64,000 nucleotides of DNA from a virus, in UHGV virus genome UHGV-0149901; one strand, 5' to 3'. Of this stretch, positions 1,318-10,612 are shown piece by piece (within the stretch, counting starts at the first letter, position 1; every line of letters starts with the position of its first letter). The notes beneath the pieces were generated by a model. The model was not told the origin of the DNA. It did not search any database and worked only from the letters and a program-made list of their open reading frames with translations. The position numbers were made by a program, and so were the translations under genes.

Positions 1318-1544
1318 ATTTTATGTTCTGTTGATATAGGATGAACAGTTTAGACGCGGCAAGCGTCAAGTGTGCGAAAAGGGTACTTAAATTTAGTTAA
1401 TCTGTCAGCTTTGATAATTTATGAACTGTAAAGTTGATGTGATATTAATCACTGATGGAAATAATGAGCTATGGAATTATTGTGACACGGCTCGTGTTTT
1501 GGTTAACTAATACCTACGATAAATATAAATAAAGGGAAGTCAAA

Positions 1545-1958
1545 ATGAGCAAAAAGAAGTTGATTTTAACAGGTGCTTTATTGTCGTTGTTTGCATTAGT
1601 TGGGTGTAAGCCTACAGACGAGAAGGCTATTACTCTGGGCCAACAGGCAATTGCGGATGATATGAAAGATCCCACGTCGGTGATGTTTAGGAAAGATAAG
1701 TTTGTCAGGACTGATCATGATGATGGGAGTGTGACAGGCTTTGTGTGTGGTGAATTAAACGCCAAAAATGGCTTTGGTGCATACGTGGGCTATCACTCAT
1801 ATGTTGTTGAACTCGAAATGAAGCCAAAGGGCATGTTTTCAAAAGGGGTGGTATACAAAATCCTATCGAAGTCGTTGGCACCTAATGATCCTCATGATTT
1901 ACAGCGTTATAAGCAGGTCTACAGAAAGATGTGCAACAGTGAGGCTGTAGCTCATTAA
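1545..1958 (+). CDS. Lipoprotein, unknown function
   Basis: Signal peptide with lipobox LVGC; 137 aa ORF. Confidence 0.65.
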   Translation: MSKKKLILTGALLSLFALVGCKPTDEKAITLGQQAIADDMKDPTSVMFRKDKFVRTDHDDGSVTGFVCGELNAKNGFGAYVGYHSYVVELEMKPKGMFSKGVVYKILSKSLAPNDPHDLQRYKQVYRKMCNSEAVAH

Positions 1959-2083
1959 AGGTGAATGCTGGGCTGAGGATATGCCCGGCATCTTAGTATA
2001 AAGAACTATTGCACCTAAAATGATAAGTAGATACATACTTAAGTTTTTGTAAGAATACTTTCATCCGTTAGCTAGGAGTTGGT

Positions 2084-2866
2084 ATGAAAGAAGAAATTAA
2101 GAGATTAGCCTGCAACATCATTGATAAAACTGGTTTAGAAATCAGCGAGAGCAATCGGCTAGACATCATTGAAAAAGCCGTCAATACGGCAATGGATCAT
2201 ATCGCCACTCGTTTGGTCGAGATCCCTCTACCGGGGCTACCTTATCTGAAGGTTAAGTTGTGCGTATGGGGCGAACCTGCACATGCACGACGTTCTGCAT
2301 TAGTTGTTTTTGTACGCAAAGAAAACTTACGAACTCTAAAAGTGCAGGTTGGGGCGTGGTTTGATGGCAGAGTCATCTATACAGATACCATTATCTGTCC
2401 TCCAGGTGACGAACATATTGAAGCCGTTATTCGAGAATCAATTCGAGCTATGCGTAGTTTAGCTTTGCTGGAAGACAAGCAAAACTTTGAAGATTACTTG
2501 CTGTCGGTAAAAGCTGAACCAACATTGTCTCTGAAAGCCGATTTCGTCACCCCGACAAATCTGTTGGAGGTTTTGATTAATAAAGGGGCTAATGATGCTG
2601 TAAACCTAATCAGGGAGAGCGAATATTCGACTCTTTGGGACATGTGCAAAAGCCAGTTGGATCTTGTGCATATCATTGTTGATGCGGGTAAGGCGTGTGA
2701 TGGCGTAATGGCGGAATTTGCTGGGAAGATGGTCAGGATTGCTAACGAATTACCGATGATAGAGCAAGAGGCCAAATCATACGCCACCAATCATGTCACA
2801 GAGCTTCTTGCCCCCTATCGCTTAGAAAGCGATCAGCGCAAGATGATTAGCTGGGGAAGTTGGTAA
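2084..2866 (+). CDS. Hypothetical protein
   Basis: 260 aa ORF with AGGAG RBS upstream. Confidence 0.6.
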   Translation: MKEEIKRLACNIIDKTGLEISESNRLDIIEKAVNTAMDHIATRLVEIPLPGLPYLKVKLCVWGEPAHARRSALVVFVRKENLRTLKVQVGAWFDGRVIYTDTIICPPGDEHIEAVIRESIRAMRSLALLEDKQNFEDYLLSVKAEPTLSLKADFVTPTNLLEVLINKGANDAVNLIRESEYSTLWDMCKSQLDLVHIIVDAGKACDGVMAEFAGKMVRIANELPMIEQEAKSYATNHVTELLAPYRLESDQRKMISWGSW

Positions 2867-2933
2867 GCTCTCTGTGTGTCGTTTTTTACGCAAATAATGA
2901 TAGGTAAGCACAAGATTATTTCTGGCGGTAATT

Positions 2934-3404
2934 GTGAAAGCTGATTTGTCAAAAGTCCCTTCTATTTCAGGAAATAACGGTTATTCACTTCGTTGTGAGG
3001 AAGTAAAGATAAACGGTGAGTCGGCATATTGCAGCTACTCCGTATGCCAGCACACCATTCTTGCCTTCAAAGAAAACCGTCTTCCTCGAACGTCTTTCCA
3101 GTCGTGCGCAACCGCTATTAAAGCAGGCAAATGCAAGGCGTTAAAAATGATGGTTGAAGAGATTCGTAAAGGAGAATCTCTGTATTTCGAAGATATGACC
3201 GCACTCATTAAGGAGGTTGAAGAACGGAATAAACAAGCCAGAACTATAAAACGAAAACGTGACAGTGTAACGATTAATAGCATGGTTAAGAAGAGCGCCA
3301 CATCACAAACAGCGATCACTGACGTGTATGCGGCGTTGATTGAAGAAACAACAAAAGAAACACATGAGCAAATCGATCAACATATGGAGGCAAAACAACA
3401 ATGA
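2934..3404 (+). CDS. Hypothetical protein (start uncertain, GTG)
   Basis: 156 aa ORF; weak RBS; stop overlaps ligase start. Confidence 0.4.
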   Translation: MKADLSKVPSISGNNGYSLRCEEVKINGESAYCSYSVCQHTILAFKENRLPRTSFQSCATAIKAGKCKALKMMVEEIRKGESLYFEDMTALIKEVEERNKQARTIKRKRDSVTINSMVKKSATSQTAITDVYAALIEETTKETHEQIDQHMEAKQQ

Positions 3405-5371: not shown

Positions 5372-6147
5372 AAACACAATGATAAGTATTTACTTACTTA
5401 TCTTTTGTGTATAAGATGACTTTGTTTTCGTTGAGACGCGACTGTTTGAACTTAAATACAAGTGCAAACGAAGAAGTCTATCTGGCAGTAGCCTAATAAG
5501 CCAAACACCAGCGAGGTCAGTTTCCAGCCTCGTTACCGAAATGGGACACACTGAGCGAGTGTGATTGCAGAACGCAGGAGGGAACATTCATGTTCCCTCC
5601 GATGAAGTAACAGAATGGGCGGTTGGTATATTTTCAACTCCATATGACTCCCGGATTCTTAGCCACTGACCGCCCATCCTGTTACGTCATTTTGTTCAAT
5701 TATGTCGTTTATACTGGGTTAAAAAGCGGCGACGTAGCCCGGCTGGTATGGTTAGCCAGCACACAACGTTGAGGCCATTACATTTGTATCAATTCTAAGG
5801 TTCTATTCACAGAGATACCGGCGAGCGTTGATATGTAACATGTTGGGCAAACATTCAATCGGAGTAGTGGCCTCAACGTTGTGAAGACAGGATTGTTGTG
5901 TAGGTTTAACCACTGTTGCCATTGGTGCCTGTTTTCACAACAAATGATTCCATACATCACATTGTATAAATTAAAAAGTAGGTGCTGTCCTCAGAAACAT
6001 CATCTACTTAAAGATTTTGCCTTCTATTGAGCGAAGTCGAAAACGTCTGGCACTAACGGAAAGTGCAAGTAGCGGTGCGTTTCCTGGCAGAAACTAACAC
6101 CGCCGCGATTGGCACTGTTGAGTAATAAATACTGGCAGTGCTGAATT

Positions 6148-6222
6148 GATGGTGTAGCTCAGCGGTAGAGCAGTTGGCTGTTAACCAACTGGTCGGTGGT
6201 TCGAATCCACCCACCATCGCCA
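6148..6222 (+). tRNA. tRNA-Asn (GTT)
   Basis: Cloverleaf by hand: acceptor GATGGTG/CACCATC, anticodon loop CTGTTAA, T-loop TTCGAAT, CCA end. Confidence 0.8.
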
Positions 6223-6227
6223 ATTTA

Positions 6228-6314
6228 GGGGAGTTAGTCCGTAGGGGCAGCGGGGTAGACTGTAAATCTACTGTCATTGCGACTCGGGTGGTTCGACTCC
6301 ATCACTCCCCACCA
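6228..6314 (+). tRNA. tRNA-Tyr (GTA), long variable arm
   Basis: Acceptor GGGGAGT/ACTCCCC, anticodon loop CTGTAAA, T-loop TTCGACT, CCA end. Confidence 0.75.
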
Positions 6315-6318
6315 AATT

Positions 6319-6394
6319 GCCGGTTTAGCTCAGCTGGTAGAGCGCCTGCCTTGTAAGCAGGATGTCAGCGGTTCGAGTCCGCTAACCGGCACCA
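6319..6394 (+). tRNA. tRNA-Thr (TGT)
   Basis: Acceptor GCCGGTT/AACCGGC, anticodon loop CTTGTAA, T-loop TTCGAGT, CCA end. Confidence 0.8.
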
Positions 6395-6618
6395 ATACAA
6401 CGATAAGATCATTACGGTTAATCGTCGTTCATGTGCACAATGACTGGTCGAAAGGTAGTGATCTTACCGTTGTGGTGGATTCGCAGACTGATGCGATAGC
6501 TTTCTTGGATGTTAGGGAAATGCGGCCGCAAATCTTCCCTTTCGCGAGCGGTGATCGTCCGTAGTCCTAATTGGCTGCACCGTATGCCGGAGATTCAGTA
6601 CCGGCCACCACAACGGCC

Positions 6619-6705
6619 GGAGAGTAGGGAGCATGGTGCTCAAGCGGTCTTGAAAACCGTCCCATTGCGCAAGCGATGATGGTTCGATTCCATTACTCTC
6701 CGCCA
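6619..6705 (+). tRNA. tRNA-Ser (TGA), long variable arm
   Basis: Acceptor GGAGAGT/ACTCTCC, anticodon loop CTTGAAA, T-loop TTCGATT, CCA end. Confidence 0.7.
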
Positions 6706-6861
6706 GACACAGCGTTGAGCGGTTTGGCCTTTTAATCAACTCGATTAAGACTCCGCTAACATAAACCAGACCGCTCAACGCTGTGATAGACAATTACGGC
6801 AGACGTTCTTAACCATAGCTTGCTAACATCCTAGCAACACTTTTTTAAGCGCAAAATCCAA

Positions 6862-6882
6862 AGGGGCTTCGGCCCCTTTTTT
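6862..6882. terminator. Rho-independent terminator, possibly bidirectional
   Basis: Hairpin AGGGGC-TTCG-GCCCCT followed by T6. Confidence 0.7.
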
Positions 6883-6883
6883 G

Positions 6884-7792
6884 TTAATGATTGCCTAGAT
6901 ATGATTTTAGTTCTTCTTTAATGATTAGTGAGTATTCTAAAATATCACTTAGTAAAAATTTTGCTCTGTTAAAATACCCACCAAAAGAACCTAAAATTTC
7001 AGATGGTCTTTCTAAGAGCATCACAATATCATCTTCTTGCACTTTAGTAATGTAACTTCTAACAGCTCTTTCTCCAATAACTCTTTTCTTACCGTTTATT
7101 TCAGATTCATCTAAAACCTTATTTATAAATTTTTCTGTATCATTGAATCGTCCACTATTGTGTACTATTGTATGTCTTAGTAGTTCAATTAGCTTGATGT
7201 TAAAGCGATAGTTTTTGCCAATCTTGTTGTTTGTTTCTATCTCTTTGAAGCCAGGTATTTTATTTCTGAAAATTTTAGTTATTTTTTTCGATGGGTTACT
7301 TTTTGCTTTTAATAATCTGTAATAAACTTCCCTTTTCCCAATTTCATCATCTTCAACCTTACCAAAATCACTTGAGGACCATAAATCATTTCGAACACAT
7401 ACAGTATAGACATATATTGCCTCAATATAGTCTTCCAGTAACTCATAGGCTTCAGTAATAACCCACTGATATTGTTTATTTTTCAAAGTATTACACAATC
7501 TTATCTTTTCTTCTAAATCAATGGCGCTGTTACCTATCTCTAATGTTGAACCTGTATATGGGTTTGAACATAAATGGCGAGCTAACGTTGTGCCACACTT
7601 AATCTTAATAGTTTCATTAATATTAATAATAGTATCTGGATTCTGTGCATACTCCACTTCTTTAAGAAGACGTTTTATATTTTTCTTTGTTGTATCATTT
7701 ATCTGATTTAAATAGTCAAAAAGTAAAGATATTTCTTCTCTAAATTCGTTGTATTTATTTTCAATCAAAGAATCAGACAACTTACCAATCAT
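6884..7792 (-). CDS. Hypothetical protein, AT-rich reverse-strand gene
   Basis: 302 aa ORF, markedly AT-rich relative to flanks, opposite strand to neighbours; contains R-x4-H (RHTIVH) HEPN-like motif (weak). Confidence 0.6.
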   Translation of the reverse strand: MIGKLSDSLIENKYNEFREEISLLFDYLNQINDTTKKNIKRLLKEVEYAQNPDTIININETIKIKCGTTLARHLCSNPYTGSTLEIGNSAIDLEEKIRLCNTLKNKQYQWVITEAYELLEDYIEAIYVYTVCVRNDLWSSSDFGKVEDDEIGKREVYYRLLKAKSNPSKKITKIFRNKIPGFKEIETNNKIGKNYRFNIKLIELLRHTIVHNSGRFNDTEKFINKVLDESEINGKKRVIGERAVRSYITKVQEDDIVMLLERPSEILGSFGGYFNRAKFLLSDILEYSLIIKEELKSYLGNH

Positions 7793-7965
7793 TAAAACCT
7801 CTATAAAATGTACATTTCAAGGCAATCCTTACTGTAATCTATTGTCGTAATCACTTCAATTGTTTACTAGTTAACCAATAAGTTACTACATACTTATCAA
7901 AAAAATCTGTTTGTAGTATAGTCTGATATGTTCGAATCAATATTTATAAAGGTATTTGTTAAGTT

Positions 7966-8211
7966 ATGACGATCACTATCTACGGACGAGATAACTGCTC
8001 ATACTGCAAACGTGCGGTCGAGCTGGCGAAGCAACTAAAGGGACATGGCTACAGTGATTATGAGTACATCGACATCACCACTGCCGGTATCGACAAGGAA
8101 AAACTTAGTGAAATTGTTGGTAAACCGGTAGAGACTATCCCCCAAGTGCTGATCGATGGCCAGCCGATTGGCGGATACACAGAATTTGCTGCTTTTGCGA
8201 GCACTCTGTAA
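7966..8211 (+). CDS. Glutaredoxin (NrdC/NrdH-like)
   Basis: 81 aa; CSYC active-site motif in thioredoxin-fold context. Confidence 0.8.
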   Translation: MTITIYGRDNCSYCKRAVELAKQLKGHGYSDYEYIDITTAGIDKEKLSEIVGKPVETIPQVLIDGQPIGGYTEFAAFASTL

Positions 8212-8306
8212 TACAATACGGCTCCTTTTGGGGCCATTTATTATTTGTAGCTTTCATCAGCACAGCGTACACTTAGTTACGAGCCATTGAGTAGTTAAGA
8301 GGTTTT

Positions 8307-8915
8307 ATGCGTTTAGAAAATTGCCTAGAAGATATGAGTGTCATTAGCAATGCCCTTGCTACTGTGACCTCTAACGCTTCACGCTTTTCAAACGCAAAGC
8401 CTACAGCTAAATCTGGGCGTGATTTTATTGAACCGCGTGGATATCGACGCTTCCGTGGCACGATGAAGCCCTCTGCGAAATTCACAGGATTCAAAACACA
8501 AACCTATGTGAGCACTGCGGCTATTCCTGTTCAAGAAAACCGCGATGCGGCACAGCTGGCAAAGATTGAAAGCAAGCTCGCAGAATTGACGGCGAAACAC
8601 GTTCGCTTAGCCCATGCCATCTCTGGATGGAAAGCGGAAAAGATTCGCAGCAACTTCGGTGAAAGTCGTTACGAAGAACTGAAGAACGTTGACCTGACCA
8701 TTCGTGGTTTGGAGGGATTCGTTAACAAGTTGATTCGCGACTCTGAGCAACCTCATCCATATTTGAAACGCTTGAGCGATTCTGTAACTGAGTATCGTTT
8801 AGCTATCTCTGATCTGCTATTGATTTTAAATCAGTGTTTTAACGACGTAGACGTCATCGAATCGCAGACTGGCCTCATTGATGAGGACGTCTTCGCCAAC
8901 TTCTCATTCCATTGA
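8307..8915 (+). CDS. Hypothetical protein upstream of toxin-like gene (possible antitoxin)
   Basis: 202 aa ORF with AAGAGG RBS, 9 bp upstream of YafO-like ORF. Confidence 0.5.
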   Translation: MRLENCLEDMSVISNALATVTSNASRFSNAKPTAKSGRDFIEPRGYRRFRGTMKPSAKFTGFKTQTYVSTAAIPVQENRDAAQLAKIESKLAELTAKHVRLAHAISGWKAEKIRSNFGESRYEELKNVDLTIRGLEGFVNKLIRDSEQPHPYLKRLSDSVTEYRLAISDLLLILNQCFNDVDVIESQTGLIDEDVFANFSFH

Positions 8916-8924
8916 GGTTGAACG

Positions 8925-9335
8925 ATGAAGATCACATGGAACAGTGATAGTTACGCCCAATTTTTAAAGCCGACCTTCGATATAAAGCCTGACTTAGAGA
9001 TTACGTTACTCAACGATTTCAAGTCGTTTAAACAAGGCATGTACCCAGCCATATTCGGCAAAGATGGCCCGTATACGGCTCCTGGTGCTATCGTGTCCTC
9101 CCGCGTCTATCACGTTCATCTCTTGTTCACGAAGCAAGAACGAACCAGCAGCCGCAGCAGATTCAATTGCACAAGCGACCGTGCACTCGTTTACAGTCAA
9201 CATGCACATTTCCAAGATGTGTATAGCCTATTGGCAATCTTCCCTAACAACGCACATCAGCACGCGAAAGATCCAAAAATTATGGTCGATATCGCTACCT
9301 ACGCGGCCGCATTTCAAGCTCTCACTAACCCTTAA
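8925..9335 (+). CDS. YafO-like toxin family protein (putative)
   Basis: Conserved blocks IFGKDGPY, RVYHVHL, LVYSQHA resemble YafO-family toxins as I recall them; 136 aa. Confidence 0.5.
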   Translation: MKITWNSDSYAQFLKPTFDIKPDLEITLLNDFKSFKQGMYPAIFGKDGPYTAPGAIVSSRVYHVHLLFTKQERTSSRSRFNCTSDRALVYSQHAHFQDVYSLLAIFPNNAHQHAKDPKIMVDIATYAAAFQALTNP

Positions 9336-9377
9336 CAATCATATTAATAACGCCTCAGAATTTAAATTCCTCCCTTA

Positions 9378-9410
9378 AATGATTCCATACCTACTATGTA
9401 TGGAATCATT
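9378..9410. other. lox/dif-like recombination core site (13 bp perfect inverted repeats, 7 bp spacer)
   Basis: AATGATTCCATAC-CTACTAT-GTATGGAATCATT, 99 bp upstream of recombinase gene. Confidence 0.65.
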
Positions 9411-9508
9411 GCTGAAAATGAGTTACTTTTACTCTTGATCCTATAAGAATCTATGCCTAATATACTGTTTACTTATACAGTGCATCGGCGTAACTCGGTG
9501 ATTGTCAT

Positions 9509-10612
9509 ATGAAAAATAGCTTTGACAGAGCACGCGCTGCGGAGAACACCTCAAAAGAGGCGATAGAGTATCTCGAAAGAGCATCTCAAATGCAGGCCGT
9601 TATGATCTCCCAGGTCAGCAATGACATGAGATTCTCGGACGCATTCATGTTATTCACTCGCTTATCTCTGCTGATAACCAGACGTCGGCCAGAGATCGCT
9701 GTTCATTGTATTTTGATACATGTTTTGCCGCACATTGCCGATGTAAAAGTAAGTGACATTAATAGGTTCATGGTGAACCAACTGGTCAACCCACTAATAC
9801 TGGATGGCAAAATTGTTATGGGCCGCCGCGTTTTCTCTCTGATGAAGCAGTTCCTTAGCTGGTGCGCCTTCCAGGGGATGATAGACGTGTCACCGTTAAA
9901 CGATATGTCACTTAACAAAGTTGCCGGTGGCGCAAAGCCCACACCTCGCGAGCGGAAGCTGACCGACGCAGAGGTATGGGTGTTCTGGAATATATGGGAC
10001 TACTTCAATGTGTGTGCTGGTACAAAATGGGCGGCCAGGCTATGTCTTGTATCCGCAAGACGACCTGACGAAGTACTGCGGGCTAAAAAAAGTGAGTTCA
10101 ATCTTAAGCGTGGGGTTTGGAATCAAGGCAAGAGGAACAAATCTGCCCGTGAGCATTCTCTGCCTTTAAGCTCATTAATGCGCACTTGTATTGAAGAGTT
10201 GTTCGAATATGGTAAAGACAGCCAGTGGCTCGTGCCTTCGAATAAAAAAATCGGGAAAGACCTTCCTATGTCTAAAGTGGCAATAGCCCAGGCATTACGT
10301 CGTATTCTGGAACGACCAGAACTGATGGAGCTTGAGCCATTTACACCCCGAGATTTGCGCCGTACTGCGCGTAGTTACTTCCCAGCATTAGGCATAAGCC
10401 AGGAGGTATCACGTAAAATCATGAACCACAGTCTTGAGGGGATAGATCGGGTCTACGACCGGCACGATTATATGGACGAGATGCGAGACGCCTTAGAAAG
10501 TTTCTCGACGTACATCGCATCAATCGTAGAGCAACCGGATTTAGACGAAATTGACCACAAATTTAAGGGAGATCGTCTATCAACAGAGCTTATTCGTGTA
10601 AATTTTTCATAG
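9509..10612 (+). CDS. Tyrosine site-specific recombinase / integrase
   Basis: C-terminal catalytic region with RDLRRT box, NHS, and terminal RVYDRHDY tyrosine; 367 aa. Confidence 0.8.
   Translation: MKNSFDRARAAENTSKEAIEYLERASQMQAVMISQVSNDMRFSDAFMLFTRLSLLITRRRPEIAVHCILIHVLPHIADVKVSDINRFMVNQLVNPLILDGKIVMGRRVFSLMKQFLSWCAFQGMIDVSPLNDMSLNKVAGGAKPTPRERKLTDAEVWVFWNIWDYFNVCAGTKWAARLCLVSARRPDEVLRAKKSEFNLKRGVWNQGKRNKSAREHSLPLSSLMRTCIEELFEYGKDSQWLVPSNKKIGKDLPMSKVAIAQALRRILERPELMELEPFTPRDLRRTARSYFPALGISQEVSRKIMNHSLEGIDRVYDRHDYMDEMRDALESFSTYIASIVEQPDLDEIDHKFKGDRLSTELIRVNFS

Follow-up and report, generated by a model that had tools for sequence, protein, structure and literature searches.

A candidate stand-alone HEPN-like ribonuclease gene in a variable hotspot of an SSU5-like phage-plasmid

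The stretch of viral DNA analyzed here, UHGV virus genome UHGV-0149901 (64,000 nucleotides, hereafter the window), is an SSU5-like phage-plasmid that shares 98.9% identity with Escherichia phage CMS-2020a (CP053388) over region 5500–9500. Its gene of interest encodes a protein of 302 residues, lies on the strand opposite to its neighbors, which are all on the plus strand, and follows a cluster of four plus-strand tRNA genes, as the original prediction had described. The AT-richness reported there is likewise borne out: the gene has a guanine-cytosine (GC) content of ∼30%, and the GC fraction over positions 6801–8000 is 0.27–0.32 as compared with 0.43–0.52 in both flanks. A 909-nucleotide open frame in stop-rich DNA of this composition is improbable by chance, and homologs at 56–60% and 37–38% identity confirm that the gene is real; a GAGG Shine-Dalgarno sequence stands 5 nucleotides before its ATG. 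RefSeq annotates the product, WP_001755525.1, as 'hypothetical protein', and in PHROGs it has an end-to-end match to phrog_35492, 'unknown function'. The most fitting description of the gene is a swappable moron, sitting in a hotspot of this phage-plasmid, that represents the first recognized case of a widespread but unnamed family of HEPN-like, stand-alone proteins.

Relatives of the protein were collected with an exhaustive profile search, a word-indexed search having returned 8 relatives only; a word-indexed profile search yielded nothing outside the family and no Pfam-labelled borderline matches. The exhaustive search yields 453 clusters (50% identity) at E ≤ 1e-3 and 142 at E ≤ 1e-30, nearly all of them 285–320 residues long and matched over their full length. 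Conservation was analyzed in 66 diverse members of 17–60% identity and in 190 non-identical members. Only four columns are invariant in the diverse set, namely E117, W138, R206, and H211, and in the larger set E117, R206, and H211 are each retained in 190 of 190 sequences. Position 207, directly after the invariant arginine, is histidine in 183 members, asparagine in 6, aspartate in 1, and nothing else. Conservation peaks at residues 105–120 (NKQYQW..EAYE..E) and 206–214 (RHxIVHxxG), and the variable parts of the protein are its first ∼100 and last ∼75 residues. The original prediction had singled out RHTIVH as an R-x4-H motif reminiscent of HEPN/Abi-type RNases; far from being unconserved in homologs, the arginine and second histidine of this motif are among the few residues that the family never varies.

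An AlphaFold2 model was built from the 66-sequence alignment and its helices assigned with DSSP. The model is confident, with a predicted local distance difference test (pLDDT) value of 93.9 and a predicted template modeling (pTM) score of 0.90. Helix 195–212 ends in the Rx4H motif and runs into loop 213–218, an arrangement also present in the first model. E117 lies on a long helix, 93–133, and is predicted to be the acidic residue of an active site; a helical insert, 134–194, separates this helix from the motif helix. In the remainder, an N-terminal helix of 50 residues is accompanied by two beta-hairpins and a long C-terminal helix; the first ∼100 residues are modeled as a long helix plus a beta-hairpin. 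The published HEPN signature consists of Rx4-6H with a polar N, D, or H after the arginine and an upstream acidic residue, with the motif closing helix 3 and continuing into a loop, and with an insert between helices 2 and 3 (Anantharaman et al. 2013, PMC3710099). Judged by its alignment and its model, the family appears to match this signature apart from the E-x3-D form of its acidic element, which is weighed below.

Searches against named families give weak matches only. The query itself retrieves from Pfam only DUF3644, at E 2.9, has no match in NCBIfam, and in PADLOC-DB v2.0.0 matches 0 families at E ≤ 10. When the 66 members are searched, Pfam returns DUF3644 for 3 of them (best E 0.0065) and HEPN_Apea for 1 (E 0.022), and PADLOC-DB returns only scattered matches of E 0.001 or weaker. 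DUF3644, the one weak Pfam match that recurs, belongs among the HEPN families (EC042_2821). None of the Pfam, PDB-sequence, and NCBIfam searches yields confident homology to a protein of structural or metabolic function, which would speak against a HEPN-like identity. For comparison with DUF3644, a domain profile of 40 sequences was built from relatives of the E. coli 042 protein EC042_RS15105 and aligned with hhalign, which places lRHiIVH over fRDQAVH of DUF3644 with the two Rx4H motifs in register. Membership of DUF3644 (PF12358) is nevertheless rejected, since the score is 7.9 bits against a cutoff of 27.6 and the hhalign score is close to that of a reversed control; EC042_RS15105, a genuine DUF3644 protein with a restriction-endonuclease-like domain, scores 160 bits, and a full-length comparison yields a spurious alignment to that endonuclease domain.

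Two further candidates were examined and set aside. Four members match TIGR00185 (TrmL; E down to 2e-5) within the insert at residues ∼150–180, a similarity regarded as a local coincidence; the phmmer comparison with E. coli TrmL itself does not exceed 3.8 bits, within a short RG-P-SIL stretch. The match to phrog_4452, 'anti-restriction nuclease' (E 0.0027), is limited to residues 20–60 of the N-terminal helix and is judged compositional. Separately, residues ∼99–176 (nucleotides ∼7265–7498), with the pattern AYExxxxFLxxxY...FW, bear a weak likeness to residues 363–436 of the halogenase CmlS (PDB id: 3i3l, E 0.028), and the corresponding NCBIfam model NF033113 is matched by 5 of the 66 members (best E 0.0038); this similarity may be due to chance. 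The proposed HEPN assignment rests on the grammar of the motif, its placement in the model, and a compatible predicted fold, rather than on significant homology to a named family.

Genome matches to the family come from Enterobacterales (Lonsdalea), Burkholderiales, Oceanospirillales, Methylococcaceae, Campylobacterota (Sulfurimonas, Sulfurovum), Desulfobacterota, Geobacter, Bacteroidota, Nitrospira, Treponema, and Neomarinimicrobiota. Most homologs are chromosomal, 15 matches are in IMG/VR viral contigs, and three chromosomal loci lie where IMG/VR predicts a prophage (L022/L053, L037/L058, and L032/L056). In 50 of the 51 loci compared, the GC content of the family gene falls 1 to 31 points below that of the 5-kb flanks. 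Among the neighbors are integrases (3), Bro-N (2), P2 GpR, AAA_21 (2), FRG (2), an Eco57I-type methylase, ToxN, MADS mad3, PDC-S15, and AriA-like ATPases, and no nucleotidyltransferase is among the top 25 Pfam families of the neighbors. When up to four open reading frames on each side were clustered across 46 loci, no conserved neighbor was found beyond near-identical loci, in a screen that counted proteins of at least 70 residues and that very small reading frames and antisense RNAs would escape. The family protein is accordingly taken to be a stand-alone one that works without a partner gene. In contigs of Thermodesulfobacteriota (L004–L007), the gene for homolog P0008 and a 562-residue open reading frame without a Pfam match are arranged tail to tail, and housekeeping genes stand beside the two. 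No paper was found in the literature that mentions WP_001755525 or a HEPN gene at this site of SSU5.

The immediate context of the gene was resolved by alignment to related elements. In comparison with phage Cyrano, near-identity extends from tRNA-Ser through a hairpin to ∼6883, breaks, and resumes exactly at the glutaredoxin ATG; because of these breakpoints, the gene and its 173-bp upstream region are delimited as one cassette of ∼1.08 kb. Cyrano is without the cassette and carries a Phage_gp49_66 gene (E 5.5e-29) at the site. Another CMS-2020a isolate (CP054387) has there a 637-residue protein with DUF1737, SASA, and DUF6645 domains, and SSU5 has no cargo, its tRNA-Asn running straight into CobT-like genes. 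Klebsiella relatives carry a homolog of 37–38% identity in the same place and orientation, adjoining PhoH and Gp49 genes, with YafO, colicin M-like, and microcin-like genes farther along. The interval from the tRNAs to the integrase is a swap site that gathers toxins, bacteriocins, and other accessory genes, and the cassette site is a genuine variable hotspot for accessory genes in SSU5-like elements, not one devoted exclusively to defense.

Among 5426 complete E. coli genomes the exact gene is present in 19, always on phage-plasmids of ∼110 kb, always at this hotspot, and always on the opposite strand. Relatives occur in 58 PLSDB plasmids (29 from Escherichia, 27 from Klebsiella, 1 from Citrobacter, and 1 from Pseudomonas), all of them non-mobilizable. 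Some E. coli phage-plasmids have frameshifted or truncated copies (P0005 and P0006, of 172–173 residues, and CP012114.1 42849–43752, in three pieces), and for this reason the gene is considered to be sometimes inactivated. The original prediction had also regarded the neighborhood of the tRNAs as a frequent site for defense or anti-defense morons. The hotspot is real and variable, but its cargo is in part unrelated to defense, and closeness to tRNAs is a property of this backbone, not of the protein family: any tRNA lies within ∼10 kb at only 6 of 44 family loci elsewhere. A functional tie to the adjacent tRNAs, in the sense of an anticodon nuclease accompanied by replacement tRNAs, is accordingly rejected as a family trait, the tRNAs being backbone genes that are retained in relatives without the cassette.

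Two observations concern other cargo of the interval from the tRNAs to the integrase. The 637-residue SASA protein of CP054387 (L067 6698–8611), encoded between the tRNA cluster and the integrase, contains a sialate O-acetylesterase-like domain and could be a surface-glycan or receptor-modifying moron. In Klebsiella-type elements (L008–L010, ∼1443–3243), the stretch from the YafO pair to the integrase contains colicin M-like (PF14859) and microcin-like genes.

Table 1. Features of the hotspot and of the 302-residue protein gene, in window coordinates.
Feature	Position	Strand	Remarks
tRNA-Asn(GTT), Tyr(GTA), Thr(TGT), Ser(TGA) cluster	6148–6705	+	edge of hotspot
Backbone hairpin AAAGGGGCTTCGGCCCCTTTTTT	6860–6882	+	8-bp stem with G-C pairs, then T6
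Variable cassette, ∼1.08 kb	6884–7965		between tRNA-operon terminator and glutaredoxin start codon
302-residue protein gene	6884–7792	−	ATG start; open reading frame call; phrog_35492; RefSeq WP_001755525.1
R206-H207-T-I-V-H211 codons (RHTIVH, residues 206–211), predicted HEPN catalytic motif	7160–7177	−	conservation and model
N105–E120 codons (NKQYQWVITEAYELLE), most conserved patch, with E117	7433–7480	−	conservation profile
Upstream region of cassette, 173 bp	7793–7965	−	GC ∼0.27; GAGG at 7798–7801
Glutaredoxin gene	7966–8211	+	
202-residue open reading frame	8307–8915	+	without Pfam or PADLOC match
YafO-family toxin gene	8925–9335	+	Pfam E 2.8e-22
Integrase gene	9509–10612	+	

The hairpin at the end of the gene, described in the original prediction as a strong flanking terminator, does exist, but it belongs to the conserved backbone shared with Cyrano, outside the inserted cassette, and its direction is that of a terminator for the tRNA operon, because its T-run is on the plus strand. 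Its folding energy is just 1.3–1.8 standard deviations under that of shuffled sequences. Read on the minus strand, the stem precedes UUUGGAUUUU, and for this reason the hairpin may be bidirectional and also terminate the 302-residue protein gene. On the other side of the gene, a scan of the minus strand of the upstream region for sigma-70 promoters returned nothing at threshold, and no small open reading frame was found there; no tandem repeats were found in the cassette, and the Rfam scan detected no RNA family besides tRNAs. Palindromes in the upstream region are only short and AT-rich: those at 7862–7881 (GTTTACTAGTTAAC) and the inverted repeats at 7884–7918 (TACTACATAC/GTTTGTAGTA) lie in the intergenic region shared by the HEPN-like gene and the glutaredoxin gene, and they could be operators or chance occurrences in AT-rich DNA.

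Beyond the glutaredoxin gene, the pair formed by the 202-residue open reading frame and the YafO gene is found again in E. coli and Klebsiella relatives; a canonical small YafN antitoxin is absent, and the 202-residue protein may be an atypical antitoxin of the YafO toxin. The tRNA cluster of the window has one tRNA-Tyr more than that of Cyrano (L001 3652–3899), and the gap from tRNA-Thr to tRNA-Ser is 225 nucleotides (6395–6618) as compared with 8 nucleotides in Cyrano; an Rfam scan of this gap gave no match.

The favored interpretation, for which sequence conservation, the structural model, and the mobile, low-GC genomic context argue and which is held with moderate confidence, is that the gene encodes a stand-alone HEPN-like RNase of an unnamed family that probably acts in abortive-infection defense. 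We infer RNase activity, a target, a trigger, dimerization, and a defense phenotype, which would be connected as follows. The protein would be a metal-independent endoribonuclease of HEPN type whose active site is made up of R206 and H211 together with H207 at the end of the core helix, plus E117 on helix 93–133, and is probably completed by dimerization or oligomerization, by analogy with other HEPN enzymes. The gene would be expressed from its own regulatory region during plasmid residence of the phage-plasmid, with the variable first ∼100 and last ∼75 residues holding the enzyme inactive and sensing the trigger. Infection by another phage or mobile element would switch the RNase on, and cleavage of tRNA, mRNA, or rRNA would then stop translation and abort the infection, shielding sister cells that carry the element. 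The tentative proposal of a defense moron with a HEPN-type motif in the original prediction is supported and is much stronger than when it was made, with the defense role itself putative.

A more ambitious and more doubtful version of this interpretation, put forward tentatively, is that the gene is the founding member of a widespread HEPN family in which one protein serves as both sensor and effector against competing phages. The hypervariable N- and C-terminal parts would recognize a protein of the invading phage, the E117/R206/H211 center would then cut specific tRNAs or other RNAs, and temperate phages and phage-plasmids would by this means exclude competitors while sparing themselves. The range of the family, at least 453 clusters, covers Proteobacteria, Campylobacterota, Desulfobacterota, Bacteroidota, Nitrospirota, spirochaetes, and their phages.

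Several findings weigh against the proposal of a HEPN-like defense RNase. Pfam, NCBIfam, and PADLOC give no significant match to any established HEPN family, and no HEPN chain turns up when PDB sequences are searched with profiles. The hhalign score against DUF3644, 17.6 (E 0.077), is no better than the 15.7 of the reversed control; for reference, the HHpred probabilities reported in the original HEPN study are 75–98% (PMC3710099). Foldseek against the PDB finds nothing below E 0.08. The upstream acidic residue of HEPN proteins is typically in the form E-x3-[KR] (PMC3710099), whereas E117 is mostly in E-x3-D, the residue at position 121 being aspartate in 120 members, lysine in 16, and arginine in 10. 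As regards a defense role, the same hotspot receives non-defense cargo such as the SASA esterase, Gp49, PhoH, and bacteriocins, and many neighbors of the chromosomal homologs are housekeeping genes, for example SmpB.

Three other explanations bear on the same observations. The gene might instead encode the toxin of an addiction or competition module, stabilizing the phage-plasmid by post-segregational killing or excluding rival elements, and held in check by a small protein or RNA antitoxin instead of by self-inhibition. Many HEPN proteins are indeed toxins of toxin-antitoxin systems (PMC3710099), the YafO toxin pair is in the same accessory region, relatives carry the colicin M and microcin-like genes, and the truncated or frameshifted copies (P0005, P0006, and CP012114) are as expected for a costly gene. 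Such a module is nonetheless unlikely here, because the partner it calls for does not appear: the 46 loci share no conserved neighbor of at least 70 residues (very small reading frames and antisense RNAs would escape), the 173-bp upstream region offers no small open reading frame, and there are no type III antitoxin-like tandem repeats, no Rfam match, and no MNT-type partner. An explanation that does away with RNase activity altogether takes the protein as a helical bundle in which the Rx4H pattern is coincidental, with either a metal site formed by E117, H207, and H211, as in DinB, YfiT, or hemerythrin-like proteins, or a function in binding or regulation. Against the metal triad stand the invariant arginine and the replacement of H207 by asparagine or aspartate, and this explanation as a whole is considered improbable.

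The orientation of the gene is relevant to the remaining explanation, in which the RNase would serve the phage itself through lytic shut-off of the host, transcript processing, or counter-defense by destroying immune RNAs or signals of the host. Its orientation, opposed to the surrounding phage operons, and its possession of a separate upstream region are both typical of a moron expressed in lysogeny, and it is dispensable, being absent from Cyrano, SSU5, and another CMS-2020a isolate and present in 19 of 5426 complete E. coli genomes. It is phage-borne, with 15 matches in viral contigs, and the adjoining phage tRNA genes could in principle replace host tRNAs that had been cut; however, the family as a whole is not linked to tRNAs, relatives without the gene have the tRNAs all the same, and homologs are mostly chromosomal. 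The weak PHROG match to an 'anti-restriction nuclease' (residues 20–60, E 0.0027), which would suit this role, amounts to just 41 residues of one helix. A service to the phage of this kind is therefore deemed quite unlikely.

If the preferred reading of the gene as a HEPN-like defense RNase is true, an uncatalogued family of single-protein immune RNases, which Pfam, NCBIfam, and PADLOC miss, would join the known repertoire of bacterial and phage defense. The elements that host it here are SSU5-type phage-plasmids circulating in clinical and livestock E. coli and Klebsiella, so that the family could shape phage susceptibility, with relevance to phage therapy, as well as competition between mobile elements. 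No new principle would be involved, as abortive infection by solo HEPN proteins has precedents in HepS and the lactococcal Abi proteins. The compactness of the family, the confident model, and three obvious catalytic candidates make the hypothesis cheap to test.

Compared with the HEPN superfamily at large, the protein shares an invariant Rx4H motif with a polar H, N, or D after the arginine, the location of this motif at the end of a core helix leading into a loop, an invariant acidic residue on a long upstream helix, a helical insert, what appears from the model to be an all-alpha bundle, and links to mobile elements and conflict systems. It differs from HEPN families in its length of ∼300 residues, roughly twice that of a minimal HEPN domain, in the N-terminal helix, beta-hairpins, and long C-terminal helix that come with this length, in its mostly E-x3-D form, and in having no significant profile match. 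The MNT-HEPN systems (HepT/MntA, DUF86; PDB ids: 5yep, 7ae2, 8xdj, 1jog, 1ylm) are unlike it, since their toxins are of ∼130 residues and always paired with a nucleotidyltransferase, whereas no MNT antitoxin is adjacent here: the cassette holds only the 302-residue protein gene, and the 46 loci are without a conserved neighbor.

DUF3644 proteins such as EC042_2821 (PF12358) resemble the family in the register of their Rx4H motifs and in the location of the gene on an integrated island adjoining a DNA methyltransferase, but they are of ∼435 residues, have a C-terminal restriction-endonuclease-like domain, and are encoded in restriction-modification operons, neither of these last two features being present in the family. 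In E. coli 042 (L065 21385–25802) the DUF3644/HEPN gene is just downstream of ssrA and an integrase, beside the DNA methyltransferase, and the locus is a typical tmRNA-site island with a gene combining HEPN and restriction endonuclease domains. A further likeness is to the lactococcal abortive infection (Abi) proteins AbiD/AbiF (Abi_2), AbiJ, AbiU2, and AbiV and to PrrC/RloC, which are built on a HEPN RNase domain and encoded by AT-rich, mostly single genes of plasmids and prophages. The family does not match their PADLOC or Pfam models, and in contrast to PrrC/RloC it has neither an ABC-ATPase fusion nor a linked restriction-modification system. Elements of the SSU5 group are reported to carry variable Abi-type defenses, and PrrC has been reported on phage-plasmids of this group (10.1101/2025.09.12.675607).

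The best precedent is HepS of prophage Gifsy-1 (PDB id: 9oik), a solo HEPN Abi protein that detects a tail-tip protein of phage and cleaves tRNAs in their anticodon loops (PMC13043305). Sequence homology to HepS was not detected, and the family protein is not a member of the HepS family. The likeness is one of organization, a single HEPN-type protein on a temperate element without a partner gene, and by this analogy HepS would be the closest mechanistic precedent for sensing and killing combined in one polypeptide.

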